DNA of 4,491 nt from a virus (IMGVR_UViG_2671180979_000013), one strand, 5' to 3'. Positions 1-4,491 are shown, numbered from the stretch's first letter. The notes: generated by a model from the letters alone, not told the origin. Translations and numbers: made by a program.

Positions 1-1184
1 CGGTCCTTCAGGGCGCTGAAGCTGTAGCGAAACCCCACGCCGTTATCATCCACCACCACATCGCTGTTGGTGTACGGCCACACCACATCCGACGGGCGGT
101 CCTGAACGAACGTCAGCGTCTGACCGTTCCATACCGGCATACAGCGCATCGCCGAGCAGAAATCACTGAGAACATCCCACGCCTTACGCTGTTGTGCCAG
201 GTACGCATTGAAGGTCATCCGCGGCTCGGTGCCCCCGAAGCCATCCGGCACCATCTGGTCGCAGTACTGCCCGATGGCATACAGCGCCCACTTGTCCACA
301 TCCGCCGCCCCCAGACGTTTTCCCATGCCGTAGCGCGGGTGAGTCAGCATGTCCCACAGGCACCAGGCAGGGTTGTTGCTGTATGCCGGTTTCAGGCTGC
401 CGTCCCAGATGCCGCTGTAAGTGCGTTTTTCCGGGTCATAGTTTGACGGTACCTGGATGATGCGACCGCGGATATGGTAGTTCACCGTCATCTGCTGACC
501 GCCAAACTGCTCCGCATCCACCTGCAGCCCCACAATCGCCGTGTTCGGGTAGCACTGTTTCACATCGATGATTTCGGTGTATGACGACCAGAGCGTCTTA
601 TTCTGCAACTGGTCCGTGGTGCTGTCCGCTGTCTCCCGGACCATCCGGATGTTAAAAGGACGGGGAGGCAGATTATCCAGAATCACCGACGCCAGGTACT
701 GTGAGGTGGTCTTGCCGTTAATGGTGACATCCTTTTCCGTCATCCATTTACCACCACGCTCAAGCTGAATCAGCAGGCGGACAGACGTCGGGTTACGGTC
801 ACCCTTTGAGGTGGTCTCCACCAGTGACTGCACCCCGAAGGTAACCCGCAGGCGGTCAATGTTCGCGGACGTAATGGTGCGCGTTACCGGCTTTGCCTTC
901 GTCACTTCCACGCCCAGTCCGGTTTCAGCTCCGGAGGACTCAAAGCCTTCCGGTGGTGTCTGCTCCTGCTCCCCAGCGCGCCAGACCGCGGTCACACCGT
1001 GTATCACAGGATTGCCGTCCGTGTCCGTCAGCGGGGTTTTGTTCACCAGGATACTCTGCAGCCCCTTCACCGGGCCTTCTATCGGTCCCTCACCAATCGC
1101 ATCAATCACACTCATCATCTGCGTGGATTTGAGATTGTCCTTCGCCTCGCGCGGTGTGTGCGCCTTGCCGCCACCTTTGCCCAT
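1..1184 (-). CDS. J: Host specificity / tail tip protein J, N-terminal ~394 codons; 3' end lies beyond the window start
   Basis: ATG at 1184..1182 on the minus strand, preceded by AAAGGGTGAG. My translation begins MGKGGGKAHTPREAKDNLKSTQMMSVIDAIGEGPIEGP...SNNPAWCLWDMLTHPRYGMGKRLGAADVDKWALY...CSAMRCMPVWNGQTLTFVQDRPSD, which matches the lambda gpJ N-terminus as I recall it. The frame stays open to position 1. Absent from the ORF track because no stop falls inside the window. Confidence 0.9.
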   Translation of the reverse strand, partial: MGKGGGKAHTPREAKDNLKSTQMMSVIDAIGEGPIEGPVKGLQSILVNKTPLTDTDGNPVIHGVTAVWRAGEQEQTPPEGFESSGAETGLGVEVTKAKPVTRTITSANIDRLRVTFGVQSLVETTSKGDRNPTSVRLLIQLERGGKWMTEKDVTINGKTTSQYLASVILDNLPPRPFNIRMVRETADSTTDQLQNKTLWSSYTEIIDVKQCYPNTAIVGLQVDAEQFGGQQMTVNYHIRGRIIQVPSNYDPEKRTYSGIWDGSLKPAYSNNPAWCLWDMLTHPRYGMGKRLGAADVDKWALYAIGQYCDQMVPDGFGGTEPRMTFNAYLAQQRKAWDVLSDFCSAMRCMPVWNGQTLTFVQDRPSDVVWPYTNSDVVVDDNGVGFRYSFSALKD

Positions 1185-1212
1185 TGTCTCACCCTTTACT
1201 GTGATAACTGTT

Positions 1213-1247
1213 ACGCACAAAAACAACAGGCATCCCGGAGGATGCCT
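1213..1247 (-). terminator. Perfect 9-bp stem / 4-nt loop hairpin followed on the minus strand by TTGTTTTTGTG; intrinsic-terminator-like, about 28 nt upstream of the J ATG
   Basis: Plus strand 1226..1247 is caggcatcc-cgga-ggatgcctg, a perfect inverted repeat. On the minus strand it is followed by ttgtttttgtgcg (plus 1225..1213). Function not demonstrated. Confidence 0.3.
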
Positions 1248-1286
1248 GCATCATGACGGAATAAAACTTCTGAATATCTTCACATT

Positions 1287-1315
1287 TTCACAAACTGACT
1301 GTGGTGCTAATAATT
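1287..1315 (+). promoter_or_regulatory. Candidate sigma70-like promoter on the plus strand, antisense to the tail operon
   Basis: TTCACA at 1287..1292, then a 15-17 nt spacer, then TAATAAT at 1308..1314. Each hexamer matches consensus at about 4 of 6 positions. It sits inside the AT-rich island, so chance matches are likely. Confidence 0.2.
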
Positions 1316-1387
1316 TCTCTGCGTTAATGTTTTTTTGCCCGAGCACCAGAAACAAAAATAACTCCTTAACGTTAATCTTTGTCTGTC

Positions 1388-1420
1388 CCCGCAACTCTGC
1401 GGGATTGTTTTATTCTTTTT
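1388..1420 (+). terminator. Plus-strand intrinsic-terminator-like hairpin with a T-rich tail
   Basis: cccgca (1388..1393), loop actc, tgcggg (1398..1403), then attgttttattcttttt (1404..1420). The T-tract overlaps the complement of the I stop codon. On the minus strand the A-tract precedes the stem, so it is not a terminator for the tail operon. Confidence 0.3.
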
Positions 1421-2099
1421 ACCCCTGCCGCCCGATAACCACAACCTTTCCGCCACCGCCTTCATCACGGGTACTGATGTCCTGGGATATCCGTCGTGAA
1501 CCAACCAGCATTTCACCATAAGGCACCGGCATCGGGTTACCCTGGGCAATCATATTGTCCAGTGAGGAAAAATACGTGTTCTGTTTACCGTTATCCGTTG
1601 CGCGGTAATCCGGTGTTTTTGCCTTCGGTGCCAGCATCTGGGCCACACCGCCCAGTATCATGCTAGCCCCCAGTGAAAACAGCATCGTGGTGGCAGAAAA
1701 ACCACCGGCTGCCAGGGCTGAACCCCATAACGCCATTGATGCCCCGGCCGTGAAGAACGACCCCACGATGGCCGCCGCCCCCAGCACAATCTGCAGTCCG
1801 CCCTTTCCGGCTCCGACCAGTCGCGGCACAATATGGATGACCGCCCCCTCACCCAGAGGTTCGTGAAGACGGGCGTACACCGCCTCCGGTGCCGTGTCCT
1901 CACCGCGAATACGTATCTGGTACCAGCCTTCGTTCATCTGACGGCGAAAGCCCGGCATCTGCATCGACAGGGCACGGATGGCTTCCGCTGCCGTGTTCAC
2001 GTACAGGCTGAGGCGGCGGCCAAATCGTTGCAAATCCCCGTGAAGGCAGATGCGTGCCAGTGGCGGTGACGCCAGACAGAATGCGTTCGTCGTTGCCAT
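1419..2099 (-). CDS. I: Tail assembly protein I (gpI-like), 226 aa
   Basis: Complete ORF in the track. The N-terminus MATTNAFCLASPPLARICLHGDLQRFGRR..., the tract HIVPRLVGAGKGG (Gly-Gly at residues 100-101), a Gly/Ala-rich hydrophobic segment, and the C-terminal NGKQNTYFSSLDNMIAQGN...GEMLVGSRRISQDIST match lambda gpI as I recall it. A GGGAGAGG Shine-Dalgarno-like motif lies upstream of the ATG. The start overlaps the K 3' end by 103 nt. Confidence 0.92.
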   Translation of the reverse strand: MATTNAFCLASPPLARICLHGDLQRFGRRLSLYVNTAAEAIRALSMQMPGFRRQMNEGWYQIRIRGEDTAPEAVYARLHEPLGEGAVIHIVPRLVGAGKGGLQIVLGAAAIVGSFFTAGASMALWGSALAAGGFSATTMLFSLGASMILGGVAQMLAPKAKTPDYRATDNGKQNTYFSSLDNMIAQGNPMPVPYGEMLVGSRRISQDISTRDEGGGGKVVVIGRQG

Positions 2100-2750: not shown

Positions 2751-3449
2751 TTACTGCGAAAGTTTATTGATGGAAAGGAAACCGCCAAAATTAGCCACCA
2801 TGCCGCGCATCTCACACCCGCGCATGCACTTGCTGCATCTGTCCTTACGGATATCCGTGGTGGGTTTATCGAACTCATCCGCCACAGCCCCGCCCGTGTA
2901 ACCACACTCATCAGAGCGGTAGGTCCACATACAGGTGTTCGCCAGCATGATACGACCGGGAAACAGCGCTCCGTCCGTCTCCGTCGGTGTTGCCAGCACA
3001 AACGAGGCTGTCATGGCCGTCAGCTCTGACATCTGCTCCACCACCCAGCGGTCGCTCAGCTCCTGCTCCGGGTCCGCTTCCGGATTGCCCGCCACAAAAT
3101 TCACCGCATCCAGAAAACGGGCATACACCCGGCGGCGGACCACCGTGGCCCCCACCAGGCTCTGCAGGTCCTCCGCCATCCCGGTGACCAGACCAAACAG
3201 ATTGGACACCGTCAGCGACGGTCTGGCACTGCTGCCCTTCCCGTTCATCTCAAAACCGCTGCCGTCAATCGGGTATGCCTGATATTGCCGCCCCTGCCAG
3301 GTGACCGGCTCCCCTTTTTCATTCAGCTCATTACAGAAAAAATACCGCTCACCGCCCTGCACCGTCAGGTCAATTTCCCAGAGCACCACCCGCGGTGACT
3401 GCTCTGATTTAACCGACTCGTTCAGACTTTCTTCGTGAATATCCTGCAT
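2751..3449 (-). CDS. L: Tail tip protein L (gpL-like), 232 aa, full length
   Basis: Start at ATG 3449..3447 (MQDIHEESLNE...), overlapping the M stop as ATGA. The first 9 codons of the track ORF 2751..3476 are an upstream extension into M. The C-terminus ...CSKCMRGCEMRGMVANFGGFLSINKLSQ and the conserved tracts VVLWEIDL, GGERYFFCNE, PVTWQGRQYQ and FPGRIMLANTC match lambda gpL as I recall it. Confidence 0.92.
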   Translation of the reverse strand: MQDIHEESLNESVKSEQSPRVVLWEIDLTVQGGERYFFCNELNEKGEPVTWQGRQYQAYPIDGSGFEMNGKGSSARPSLTVSNLFGLVTGMAEDLQSLVGATVVRRRVYARFLDAVNFVAGNPEADPEQELSDRWVVEQMSELTAMTASFVLATPTETDGALFPGRIMLANTCMWTYRSDECGYTGGAVADEFDKPTTDIRKDRCSKCMRGCEMRGMVANFGGFLSINKLSQ

Positions 3450-3475
3450 CAGTTCACCACCTGCTCTATCGTGCA
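2847..3475. repeat. Direct repeat copy A (629 bp): 5' 603 bp of L plus the 3' end of M
   Basis: Hand alignment to 3863..4491 at a constant offset of 1016 bp gives about 26 substitutions and no indels, roughly 96% identity. Confidence 0.9.
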
Positions 3476-3790
3476 ACTGAAATCACTGTACCGGGCATTA
3501 TCCGTGACACTCCACTCACGGCACACAACCCTCACCGTCCGGTTATGTTTCGGCGGTCGCCACAAAAAGGCACGGTAACCACCATGCCACGATAAAAACT
3601 CTTCCAGCCAGCGCCGGGTTGACTCATCCGTCACCCGGAACACCGCCTGAAACGTCTTCAGTTGAGGATTCAGCCCTGTGGGGCGGCGCTGTTCATAACC
3701 GTCACCAAACCGCACCCTCACCACCGACGGCTTCTCACTCACCTGCATCCCTTCACGCGGGACCAGATGCAGCGTTTTTATCTCAGCCAC
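3449..3790 (-). CDS. M: Minor tail protein M (gpM-like), 113 codons, GTG start
   Basis: The C-terminus ...FSCTIEQVVN and the internal VRFGDGYEQR and WHGGYRAFLW tracts resemble lambda gpM. The start codon is GTG at 3790..3788 (checked by hand), preceded by GGAGG with an 8-nt spacer. An in-frame TGA lies immediately upstream of the GTG, so no longer N-terminus is possible. Confidence 0.8.
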   Translation of the reverse strand: MAEIKTLHLVPREGMQVSEKPSVVRVRFGDGYEQRRPTGLNPQLKTFQAVFRVTDESTRRWLEEFLSWHGGYRAFLWRPPKHNRTVRVVCREWSVTDNARYSDFSCTIEQVVN

Positions 3791-3862
3791 TCAGCATTCC
3801 TCCGTCACGTCGCATGGACAGCATCACCGCCTGCACCCGCTGGTCAATCAGCTGCACAAGAA
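3783..3862 (-). other. Orphaned 3'-terminal fragment (about 26 codons) of the gene upstream of M; by lambda gene order this would be the tape measure gene H
   Basis: A minus-strand frame reads ...LVQLIDQRVQAVMLSMRRDGGMLSG* with its TGA at 3785..3783, overlapping the M GTG start (GTGGCTGA). The frame is closed by a stop at 3893..3891, and sequence similarity to copy A ends at 3862/3863. Identification as H is by position only. Confidence 0.4.
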
Positions 3863-4465
3863 ACGGATATCCGTGGTGGGGTTGTCGAACTCATCCGCCA
3901 CAGCCCCGCCCGTGTAACCACACTCATCAGAGCGGTAGGTCCACATACAGGTGTTCGCCAGCATGATGCGACCGGGAAACAGCGCTCCGTCCGTCTCGGT
4001 CGGTGTAGCCAGCACAAACGAGGCCGTCATGGCTGTCAGCTGCGACATCTGCTCCACCACCCAGCGGTCACTCAGCTCCTGCTCCGGGTCCGCCTCCGGA
4101 TTGCCCGCAACGAAATTCACCGCATCCAGAAAACGGGCATACACCCGGCGGCGGACCACCGTGGCCCCCACCAGGCTCTGCAGGTCCTCCGCCATTCCGG
4201 TGACAAGGCCAAACAGATTGGACACCGTCAGCGACGGTCTGGCACTGCTGCCCTTCCCGTTCATCTCAAAGCCGCTGCCGTCAATCGGGTACGCCTGATA
4301 TTGCCGCCCCTGCCAGGTGACCGGCTCCCCTTTTTCATTCAGTTCATTGCAGAAAAAATAGCGCTCACCGCCCTGCACCGTCAGGTCGATTTCCCAGAGT
4401 ACCACACGCGGTGACTGCTCTGACTTAACCGACTCGTTCAGGCTTTCTTCGTGAATATCCTGCAT
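3848..4465 (-). pseudogene. Truncated second copy of L (L'): 202 gpL codons plus 3 unrelated codons (FLCS) and a stop
   Basis: 205-aa track ORF. Residues 1-202 differ from the L copy at 2751..3449 at only 2 positions (E to Q, K to N). The sequence diverges completely after ...PTTDIR, at plus coordinate 3862/3863. The start ATG 4465..4463 overlaps the stop of an upstream M copy as ATGA. Confidence 0.75.
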
Positions 4466-4491
4466 CAGTTCACCACCTGCTCTATCGTGCA
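3863..4491. repeat. Direct repeat copy B (629 bp, runs to the window edge): L' plus the 3' end of a second M
   Basis: Same alignment as copy A. Similarity ends sharply at 3862/3863; plus 3857..3862 caagaa does not match 2841..2846 gtcctt. Confidence 0.9.
4465..4491 (-). CDS. 3' end (last 8 codons plus stop) of a second M copy; the rest lies beyond the window end
   Basis: The reverse complement of 4468..4491 encodes CTIEQVVN followed by TGA (4467..4465), identical to the C-terminus of M at 3449..3790. Confidence 0.5.
   Translation of the reverse strand, partial: CTIEQVVN

Follow-up and report, generated by a model that had tools for sequence, protein, structure and literature searches.

A probable PasB-family small RNA gene opposite the tail genes I and J of a prophage

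The viral DNA stretch IMGVR_UViG_2671180979_000013, which is 4,491 nucleotides long and is referred to here as the window, carries phage tail genes on its minus strand. Between two of them, I and J, the plus strand (1266-1414) very probably holds a self-contained gene for a small RNA (sRNA) of the PasB/EcOnc22-24 family, a moron-like insert transcribed against the genes on either side. By analogy with the characterized members of this family, its product would most likely be a trans-acting Hfq sRNA of ~77-92 nt. The motifs, synteny, homology and conservation described below come from the present analysis, while the literature on homologues supplies the evidence for a transcript, for how long it is, for its need of Hfq and for its RNA partners. 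For the window allele itself we infer where exactly transcription starts, which stretch is the seed, in which direction regulation works and any involvement of CRP.

Homologues in pathogenic Escherichia coli

The closest experimental counterpart is the pathogenicity-associated small RNA B (PasB), encoded by prophage PP6 of enteropathogenic E. coli (EPEC) O127:H6 E2348/69 (Pearl Mizrahi et al. 2021, PMC8550237). Its gene occupies 1466343..1466261 on the minus strand of NC_011601.1 (83 nt), between E2348C_1436 and E2348C_1437; its start was set 'according to RNA coverage' and a strand-specific Northern probe is also listed (table S6 and its legend, Pearl Mizrahi et al. 2021). In the RefSeq annotation of E2348/69, I and J are plus-strand genes, the former ending at 1466255 and the latter beginning at 1466496. 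Since E2348C_1436 and E2348C_1437 are I and J, PasB lies in the I-J gap, antisense to both genes and 6 nt from the I stop. The window unit has the same position in the I-J gap, the same antisense orientation and likewise a 3' end near the I stop.

The I-J gaps of the window and of E2348/69 can be aligned end to end. In this alignment the counterpart of the annotated 83-nt PasB is 1336..1411 on the plus strand (~76-77 nt here), with 63 matches, 7 mismatches and 19 gap columns distributed over three indels, i.e. 90% identity over the aligned columns. Both loci share the promoter layout TTCACA-16-(T/A)ATAAT, the hairpin arms CCCGCA/UGCGGG, an unpaired RNA body and a conserved stretch 5' of the terminator. 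Compared with PasB, the window allele has gained 6 nt near the 5' end and has lost 4 nt at one place and 9 nt at another, the 9-nt deletion reducing the terminator loop from 11 to 4 nt; it further differs by seven substitutions, some of them within the candidate seed, and by a G interrupting the U-tract. A reading of the window made beforehand from its sequence only had proposed a short plus-strand transcript, running from promoter to terminator antisense to the tail operon, and this proposal is borne out in that the homologous locus makes the 83-nt PasB.

Sequences of 30 other alleles, PasB among them but none of the window's own allele type, served to build a covariance model (R1). When the window was searched with it, R1 matched the predicted primary transcript, 1321-1412 on the plus strand (~92 nt), exactly, with 67.4 bits and an E-value of 3e-11, the next best hit reaching ~6 bits. 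The Rfam covariance search that the sequence-only reading had recommended went the other way: with release 15, both strands of the window and E-values up to 1, no family was found, including AgvB, AsxR, STnc100, IsrK and DicF, and the same tool detected AgvB and STnc100 at the Sakai loci used as positive controls. The identification was therefore made through the literature and through alignments.

PasB was seen by Northern blot and its level changed by -6.8 and -2.4 (log2) in an hfq mutant (Pearl Mizrahi et al. 2021). In RIL-seq data (ligation of interacting RNAs followed by sequencing) it had 37 partners, 30 of them in coding sequences (CDS) or 5' untranslated regions (5'UTR), it was the second RNA in ~99-100% of the chimeras, which is the signature of an sRNA, and >98% of its chimeric fragments involved core-genome RNAs (Pearl Mizrahi et al. 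2021). Hfq-dependent stability and mRNA pairing, as shown for the homologues PasB and EcOnc22, may be expected of the window allele by extension. Variants of PasB were reported to differ by few nucleotides (Zhu, Shabalina and Storz 2026, bioRxiv 10.64898/2026.05.13.724894); alleles as diverged as that of the window may fall outside this survey.

A second set of homologues comes from enterohaemorrhagic E. coli (EHEC). EcOnc22 is encoded on the plus strand of Sp15, a Shiga toxin 1 (Stx1) phage, gives a band of ~85 nt on Northern blots and is destabilised without Hfq; EcOnc23 (Sp14) and EcOnc24 (Sp11) are its homologues (Tree et al. 2014, PMC4104026, Table S2). EcOnc22 was still entered with unknown targets in a 2021 review. 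All three EcOnc coordinates fall within I-J gaps of the O157 Sakai genome (NC_002695.2), where the tail genes are on the minus strand, and the I-J gaps of Sp15, Sp11 and Sp14 each carry an identical 92-nt family member (L017, included in R1). The printed peaks lie ~123 nt to the left of the family gene in NC_002695.2, the paper having used an earlier genome version. With respect to NC_002695.2, the EcOnc coordinates of Table S2 are off by roughly +130 to +146 nt, and this shift must be corrected when the peaks of Tree et al. are placed on this sequence. AgvB1 gave an offset of +137 to +146, and STnc100 in Sp17 one of +99 to +227, both being sRNAs that Rfam detects. Once corrected, the EcOnc Hfq peaks cover roughly positions 19-79 of the 92-nt RNA, inside the family gene, so that PasB and EcOnc22/23/24 appear to belong to the same family. 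Like the window unit, the EcOnc genes occupy a lambdoid I-J gap, on the plus strand opposite the tail genes, and can be aligned with the family. The Sakai allele differs from that of the window in its 5' part (GCAUUACUUUUUUGAUGCCUG...), the -35 region, the seed (CUCCAUAAC) and the loop, and alleles of this type match the 156-nt search query described below at ~67%. No EHEC homologue of PasB is given in table S6 of Pearl Mizrahi et al. (2021), and EcOnc is not mentioned in the preprint of Zhu et al. (2026).

The distribution of the element was examined with a 156-nt query comprising promoter and RNA. It occurs at 2839 places in 1778 of the 5426 complete E. coli genomes searched, in 60 phage records, including Stx1a, Stx2a and Stx2c phages, and in at least 120 IMG/VR contigs. 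At least 99% identity to the window allele over the query was reached in 216 records, among them O157:H7 and O121 strains. In all annotated loci that were fetched, the element adjoins J, and it lies between I and J wherever I persists. None of the inspected records annotates the sRNA gene. Altogether 39 distinct RNA sequences were collected and 32 of them aligned. According to the published account, the gene is restricted to Escherichia and Shigella, with which a pattern scan of one genome per species agrees: it returned two matches outside Escherichia, both on short contigs of non-enteric assemblies. These contigs belong to Parendozoicomonas haliclonae (L019, 460 bp) and Streptomyces flavalbus (L020, 3408 bp), the latter reading as E. 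coli prophage tail DNA, and both matches are probably assembly contamination.

Promoter, RNA body and terminator

The AT-rich island and the motifs pointed out in the sequence-only reading were all found again by consensus scan, repeat finder and composition profile. The promoter scan places a -35-like hexamer TTCACA at 1287..1292 and, after 16 nt, a -10 hexamer AATAAT at 1309..1314, both on the plus strand; the TAATAAT at 1308-1314 noted earlier includes the latter. The pair matches the sigma-70 consensus at 10 of 12 positions. The 4.5-kb window contains two sigma-70-like hits, which overlap at this single site, and shuffled sequences give 1.7 +/- 1.6 of them; the earlier reading had cautioned that its evidence was at the level of motifs and that AT-rich DNA produces such hexamers by chance.

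Conservation of the promoter was assessed on 17 variants collected by BLAST, hence free of any selection for motifs. The -10 hexamer occupies the same position in all of them, as TATAAT in ten, AATAAT in six and GATAAT in one. At -35, TTCACA is found in 13 variants and TTTACA, TCTGCA, TCCGGC or TTTGCA in the rest. The unit thus has its own predicted sigma-70 promoter at the upstream position conserved in the family, from which the start is predicted at G1321, 7 nt past the -10 hexamer. The annotated 5' end of PasB corresponds to position 1336, ~15 nt further 3'. As it was set by RNA coverage, this end is possibly processed or only roughly placed, and may reflect cleavage in the U-run or mere imprecision. 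An alternative promoter for a 5' end at 1336, GTTAAT at 1323-1328, was considered and rejected: it has neither the conserved A2 nor a -35, and alleles differ at its last two positions. The predicted length is accordingly 92 nt from the promoter-derived start and ~77 nt from the PasB-equivalent end, family transcripts measuring ~83-85 nt.

Within the RNA, the best-conserved internal stretch is 1357..1379 on the plus strand (AAUAACUCCUUAACGUUAAUCUU), which corresponds to alignment columns 37-59, invariant or nearly so, and has no consensus pairing according to RNAalifold. This conserved and unpaired stretch (AAUAACUCCUUAAC...) is the probable seed. It includes CUCCUU (1362-1367), complementary to the Shine-Dalgarno sequence. 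The seed of PasB is likewise placed just 5' of the terminator (Zhu et al. 2026), and the assignment of 1357-1379 agrees both with this placement and with the fact that most partners are 5'UTR or CDS. Other conserved parts outside the terminator are a 5' GCGUUA, a U-run and the stretch AAUAAcUCCuUAa...AAUCUU. The terminator stem is the only one found by RNAalifold, which leaves the RNA body unpaired.

The terminator hairpin CCCGCA-ACUC-UGCGGG was recovered at 1388..1403 on the plus strand by the promoter/terminator scan, by the repeat finder and by folding (-10.9 kcal/mol). Its arms, CCCGCA (1388-1393) and TGCGGG (1398-1403), were delimited as the same 6-bp arms by the repeat finder; they enclose the loop ACTC and are followed by ATTGTTTTAT, the sequence 3' of the hairpin reading ATTGTTTTATTCTTTTT. 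The U-tract itself (AUUGUUUUAUU, 1404..1414, plus strand; family consensus AUUUUUUUAU) is the expected point of termination and the expected 3' binding site of Hfq. The unit therefore ends like other family members in a rho-independent terminator with a poly-U tail, here interrupted by G1407. This T-to-G change (TTGTTTT/UUGUUUU) was observed in one of 153 family copies, an IMG/VR contig (L038) whose gap is identical to that of the window; the other copies have 6-9 uninterrupted T.

The terminator stem is invariant among the 32 aligned variants, with loops of 4 to 16 nt. Allele L005 has a mutated outer 5' arm, in place of which an inner arm pairs. The conservation called for by the sequence-only reading is therefore present as far as the stem is concerned; the compensatory changes that it also called for were not found in the RNAalifold fold of the 32 variants. 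A stem that does not vary yields no covariation evidence either way, and the structural support rests on conservation and on the tolerated changes in loop size. The window contains 8 terminator-like sites against 3.6 +/- 2.0 in shuffles, and the fold of 1321-1412 has a modest z-score of -2.3. Motif counts by themselves are not beyond chance; it is through its conservation across many prophages and its identity with an experimentally shown sRNA that the unit exceeds it.

A CRP-like site of 22 bp (1266..1287, strand-neutral) precedes the promoter, identified by motif scan and by its conservation in the 17 variants. Its core TCTGA-ATATCT-TCACA (1269-1284) agrees with TGTGA-N6-TCACA at 9 of 10 core positions, and this pattern with at most one mismatch occurs once in the window, against 0.16 expected. 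Both half-sites are identical in 17/17 variants and stand at a fixed distance of 24 nt from the -10 hexamer, while the 6-nt spacer is variable, with three forms among the 17; A/T runs flank the box. The IMG/VR loci were selected with TCTTCACATTT in the search pattern and so provide no evidence for the right half-site. In alleles with unrelated upstream DNA, homology starts just 5' of the box, which thus marks the edge of the module. The box is centred at 1276.5, which is 32.5 nt before the -10 hexamer begins and about -44.5 for a start at 1321. Canonical class II CRP sites are centred at about -41.5. The box is hence ~3 bp too far out for class II spacing, which counts against a standard CRP mechanism, and its binding by CRP is put forward as a possibility that its sequence suggests. 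PasB was higher in overnight static LB cultures than in DMEM, and the CRP-repressed Spot 42 was ~5-fold up in DMEM (Pearl Mizrahi et al. 2021). The PasB difference is compatible with activation by CRP, a comparison in which growth phase is a confounding factor. Zhu, Shabalina and Storz (2026) mention neither a promoter nor CRP.

From these elements the following course can be proposed. RNA polymerase carrying sigma-70 would initiate ~7 nt past AATAAT, near G1321, and would terminate at the CCCGCA/UGCGGG hairpin and U-tract near 1410, producing a primary RNA of ~92 nt that might be trimmed, by analogy with PasB, to ~77 nt with a 5' end near 1336. Hfq would stabilise the RNA by binding the 3' hairpin and U-tail. 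The stretch 1357-1379, with its anti-Shine-Dalgarno CUCCUU, would then pair with 5'UTRs and early coding regions, mainly of core-genome mRNAs, altering the translation or the stability of these targets. Expression from the prophage would probably peak in glucose-poor or stationary-phase cultures, possibly through the CRP-like site.

Several points weigh against the assignment or against some of its parts. Expression of the window allele is a prediction, as the transcript was detected in homologues only. The -35 hexamer varies among alleles, and the ~15 nt between the promoter-derived start and the annotated end of PasB make the true 5' end uncertain. The candidate seed also varies at several positions from one allele to another, so that the targets of EPEC PasB may not carry over. 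G1407, combined with a stem of 6 bp, could weaken both termination efficiency and Hfq binding, and the stem has no compensatory pairs to its credit. Lastly, the mapping of the EcOnc peaks relies on an offset measured at two other loci, not at the three EcOnc loci.

Alternative readings of the locus

The I-J gap contains a second signal, of opposite orientation. An intrinsic terminator on the minus strand (1216..1249) was found by scan, repeat finder and folding, with a 10-bp stem at 1249..1226 followed by UGUUUUUGUG. Its fold reaches -19.6 kcal/mol (z-score -4.3), and none of 200 shuffles was as stable. It is located between the sRNA promoter and the J start and is part of the inserted gap DNA. 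It is conserved among alleles, which include a T-A to C-G double change together with both wobble intermediates, and some alleles (L006, L008 and L009) have a different, bidirectional-looking hairpin at this site. Within the late tail operon, a terminator placed directly in front of J would not be expected.

A broad conjecture accommodates both signals, and it is regarded here as speculative and rather unlikely. The PasB module would be a mobile cassette with a regulator-binding site of its own, in which the invariant TCTGA-N6-TCACA ties output to cyclic AMP-CRP, or to another regulator of the CRP family, at a non-canonical spacing; during the lytic cycle, pairing in cis with the I-J RNA would set the level of J together with the minus-strand terminator, and PasB and EcOnc22-24 would form a single family with seeds that diverge from prophage to prophage so as to retarget host mRNAs.

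It is less likely still that the RNA acts chiefly in cis, pairing with the I-J intercistronic part of the late mRNA and controlling its processing or the expression of J, as OOP of phage lambda does for cII, with pairing in trans as a secondary activity. Such a role would suit an RNA that is fully complementary to the minus-strand gap and whose 3' end lies 7-9 nt from the I stop. The conserved and strong minus-strand terminator 5' of J suggests a regulated read-through into J, and the module keeps one fixed position in nearly all examined loci. The RNA overlaps, however, neither the coding region of I nor the ribosome-binding site of J, whose start is 137 nt from the start of the RNA. The late operon is largely silent in the lysogen, so that a cis target would be mostly absent when PasB is abundant. 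The partners of EPEC PasB also speak for action in trans, 30 of 37 being CDS or 5'UTR and the chimeras being almost entirely with the core genome (>98%). On the same ground, the earlier suggestion of a small regulatory RNA or tiny moron can be refined: the homologues point to an Hfq sRNA acting in trans on core-genome mRNAs and away from a dedicated antisense regulator of the tail genes.

A different doubt concerns the window copy rather than the family. It could be a decaying or poor allele in which the interrupted U-tract and short hairpin lead to read-through or weak Hfq binding and thus to little mature sRNA, an explanation that appears very improbable. G1407 is, as noted above, exceptional among the 153 copies, and the hairpin is the weakest of those folded, with 6 bp and -10.9 kcal/mol against -12.6 to -16.1 kcal/mol in most others. 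The -10 hexamer is AATAAT and not TATAAT, and the prophage around it has undergone rearrangement, L being present in a second, truncated copy. Yet the same hairpin occurs with an intact U-tract in at least ten loci (two of L001 type and eight of L023 type), and 216 records are >=99% identical over the 156-nt query. Four U follow G1407, with more U at 1413-1420, the scan still calls the site terminator-like and the promoter keeps its 10 of 12 consensus positions.

A type I toxin-antitoxin system or small-protein moron, in which a minus-strand open reading frame (ORF) at 1394..1251 (33-47 codons) would be countered by the plus-strand RNA as antitoxin, has hardly any likelihood. The ORF has a Shine-Dalgarno-like AAGGAG and ends at the minus-strand terminator, and two phage records annotate a hypothetical protein at this place. 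This AAGGAG is nevertheless the mere complement of the conserved CUCCUU. For E2348/69 and another five alleles, the TATAAT form of the -10 hexamer introduces an in-frame stop, so that 18 codons without a start remain; the frame is displaced in its upstream part by indels of 6-10 nt, the substitutions show no bias towards third codon positions and the peptide is not hydrophobic. No conserved hydrophobic toxin ORF was thus found opposite the RNA, the frame being interrupted or shifted in many alleles. A peptide read from ATG 1327 on the plus strand, as part of the ORF 811..1521, was rejected as well, its frame continuing through the terminator without a stop in the RNA, and E2348/69 having GTG in place of the ATG. 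Finally, chance motifs in an AT-rich spacer, with a hairpin that only terminates or stabilises the I message and no plus-strand RNA, deserve next to no credence: the motif counts are within the range of shuffles and AT-rich DNA does give promoter-like hexamers, but the U-tract is 3' of the hairpin on the plus strand only (the minus side has A's before and GACAGAC after), the unit is conserved as a block in differing upstream contexts, and the homologous RNA was detected by strand-specific probes and by Hfq crosslinking.

Genomic setting and significance of the family

The tail genes of the window all lie on the minus strand, in the order truncated L (4465..3848), M (3790..3449), L (3476..2751), K, I (2099..1419) and J (from 1184 downwards); their names were taken from the ORF list and from the RefSeq annotation of a locus 98% identical across window positions 1150-1480. 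With the I stop at 1419 and the J start at 1184, the I-J gap spans 1185..1418 (234 bp, strand-neutral) and houses the complete sRNA module. It is AT-rich, the composition profile giving 41% GC at 1201-1400 against ~60% on both flanks. In phage lambda, I and J are not known to be separated by such a gap.

Comparison of 3848-4491 with 2832-3476 revealed a second, truncated copy of L located 5' of M, which encodes 205 aa with ~96% identity to the full L, lacks the C-terminus and is joined at ~3863/3864 to the apparent 3' end of the tape-measure gene. The whole window is colinear with no complete E. coli genome, the best match being 95.8% in two pieces. This arrangement looks like the recombination of two related prophages or a diverged tandem duplication; it may also be an assembly artefact.

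Individual loci of the family show further variation. In E. coli TB06053 (L010, 110-290), the I-J gap is 424 bp long and has a second unit 5' of the PasB-type gene. This unit combines a TCTGA-N6-TCACA box, a different body, a similar CAACUCCUUAAGG stretch and its own hairpin with a U-run (CUCCCG...GCGGGAGCGUUUUUU), with no -10 at the equivalent distance, and could be a tandem paralogue or a remnant. In E. coli O157:H7 NE 1169-1 (L141, 3215-3840), an allele 99% identical to that of the window resides in a decayed prophage, which has a frameshift in J, has lost K and I and has the sRNA module abutting a truncated L; the sRNA gene itself is intact and its U-tract uninterrupted. In E. coli RM14516 (L011), an 8-nt unit, GTCTGATG, forms ~5 tandem repeats just 5' of the J start, and related alleles have one or two copies of it.

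Several known phage systems resemble the window unit in part. AgvB and AsxR (RF02702 and RF02703) of EHEC prophages are also short, Hfq-dependent, provided with their own promoter and terminator and carried as moron-like cargo. They differ in measuring 51-60 nt, in sponging core sRNAs and in occupying the moron site downstream of PR', and show no sequence or model similarity to the window (Rfam, E up to 1). An anti-sRNA of AgvB/AsxR type in the tail region was rejected, given their location at the PR' site. The OOP RNA of phage lambda, 77 nt long, has its own promoter and intrinsic terminator and is convergent against a phage gene; its target in cis is cII, whose coding sequence it overlaps at the 3' end, and RNase III mediates the effect. 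The window RNA is similarly short, with its own promoter and terminator opposite phage genes, but unlike OOP it lies clear of coding sequences, and the pairing of its homologue on Hfq is mostly with host mRNAs. The morons of lambdoid phages (Juhala et al. 2000) are a further parallel. Like them, the 234-bp gap is additional AT-rich DNA, of differing GC content, placed between neighbouring genes of lambda; it has its own promoter and terminator and can be expressed from the prophage. In contrast, classical morons encode proteins and are usually directed with the operon, while the window unit is non-coding and runs against it.

Overall, the window unit is a diverged, unannotated allele of an experimentally shown sRNA family. 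The call itself is routine and, the family having already been shown experimentally, its novelty is low. What is added is the equivalence of PasB and EcOnc22-24, a view of how broad the family is and how much its alleles vary, the CRP-like box, and the conserved minus-strand terminator 5' of J. The link between PasB and EcOnc22/23/24, which includes an Stx1 phage, was made in neither of the two Pas papers, and the gene lacks an Rfam model although roughly one in three complete E. coli genomes carries it, often more than once. The conserved CRP-like box offers a testable idea for the control of the sRNA. As the candidate seeds differ between alleles, a single fixed position in the tail operon may let prophages supply varied regulatory specificities.

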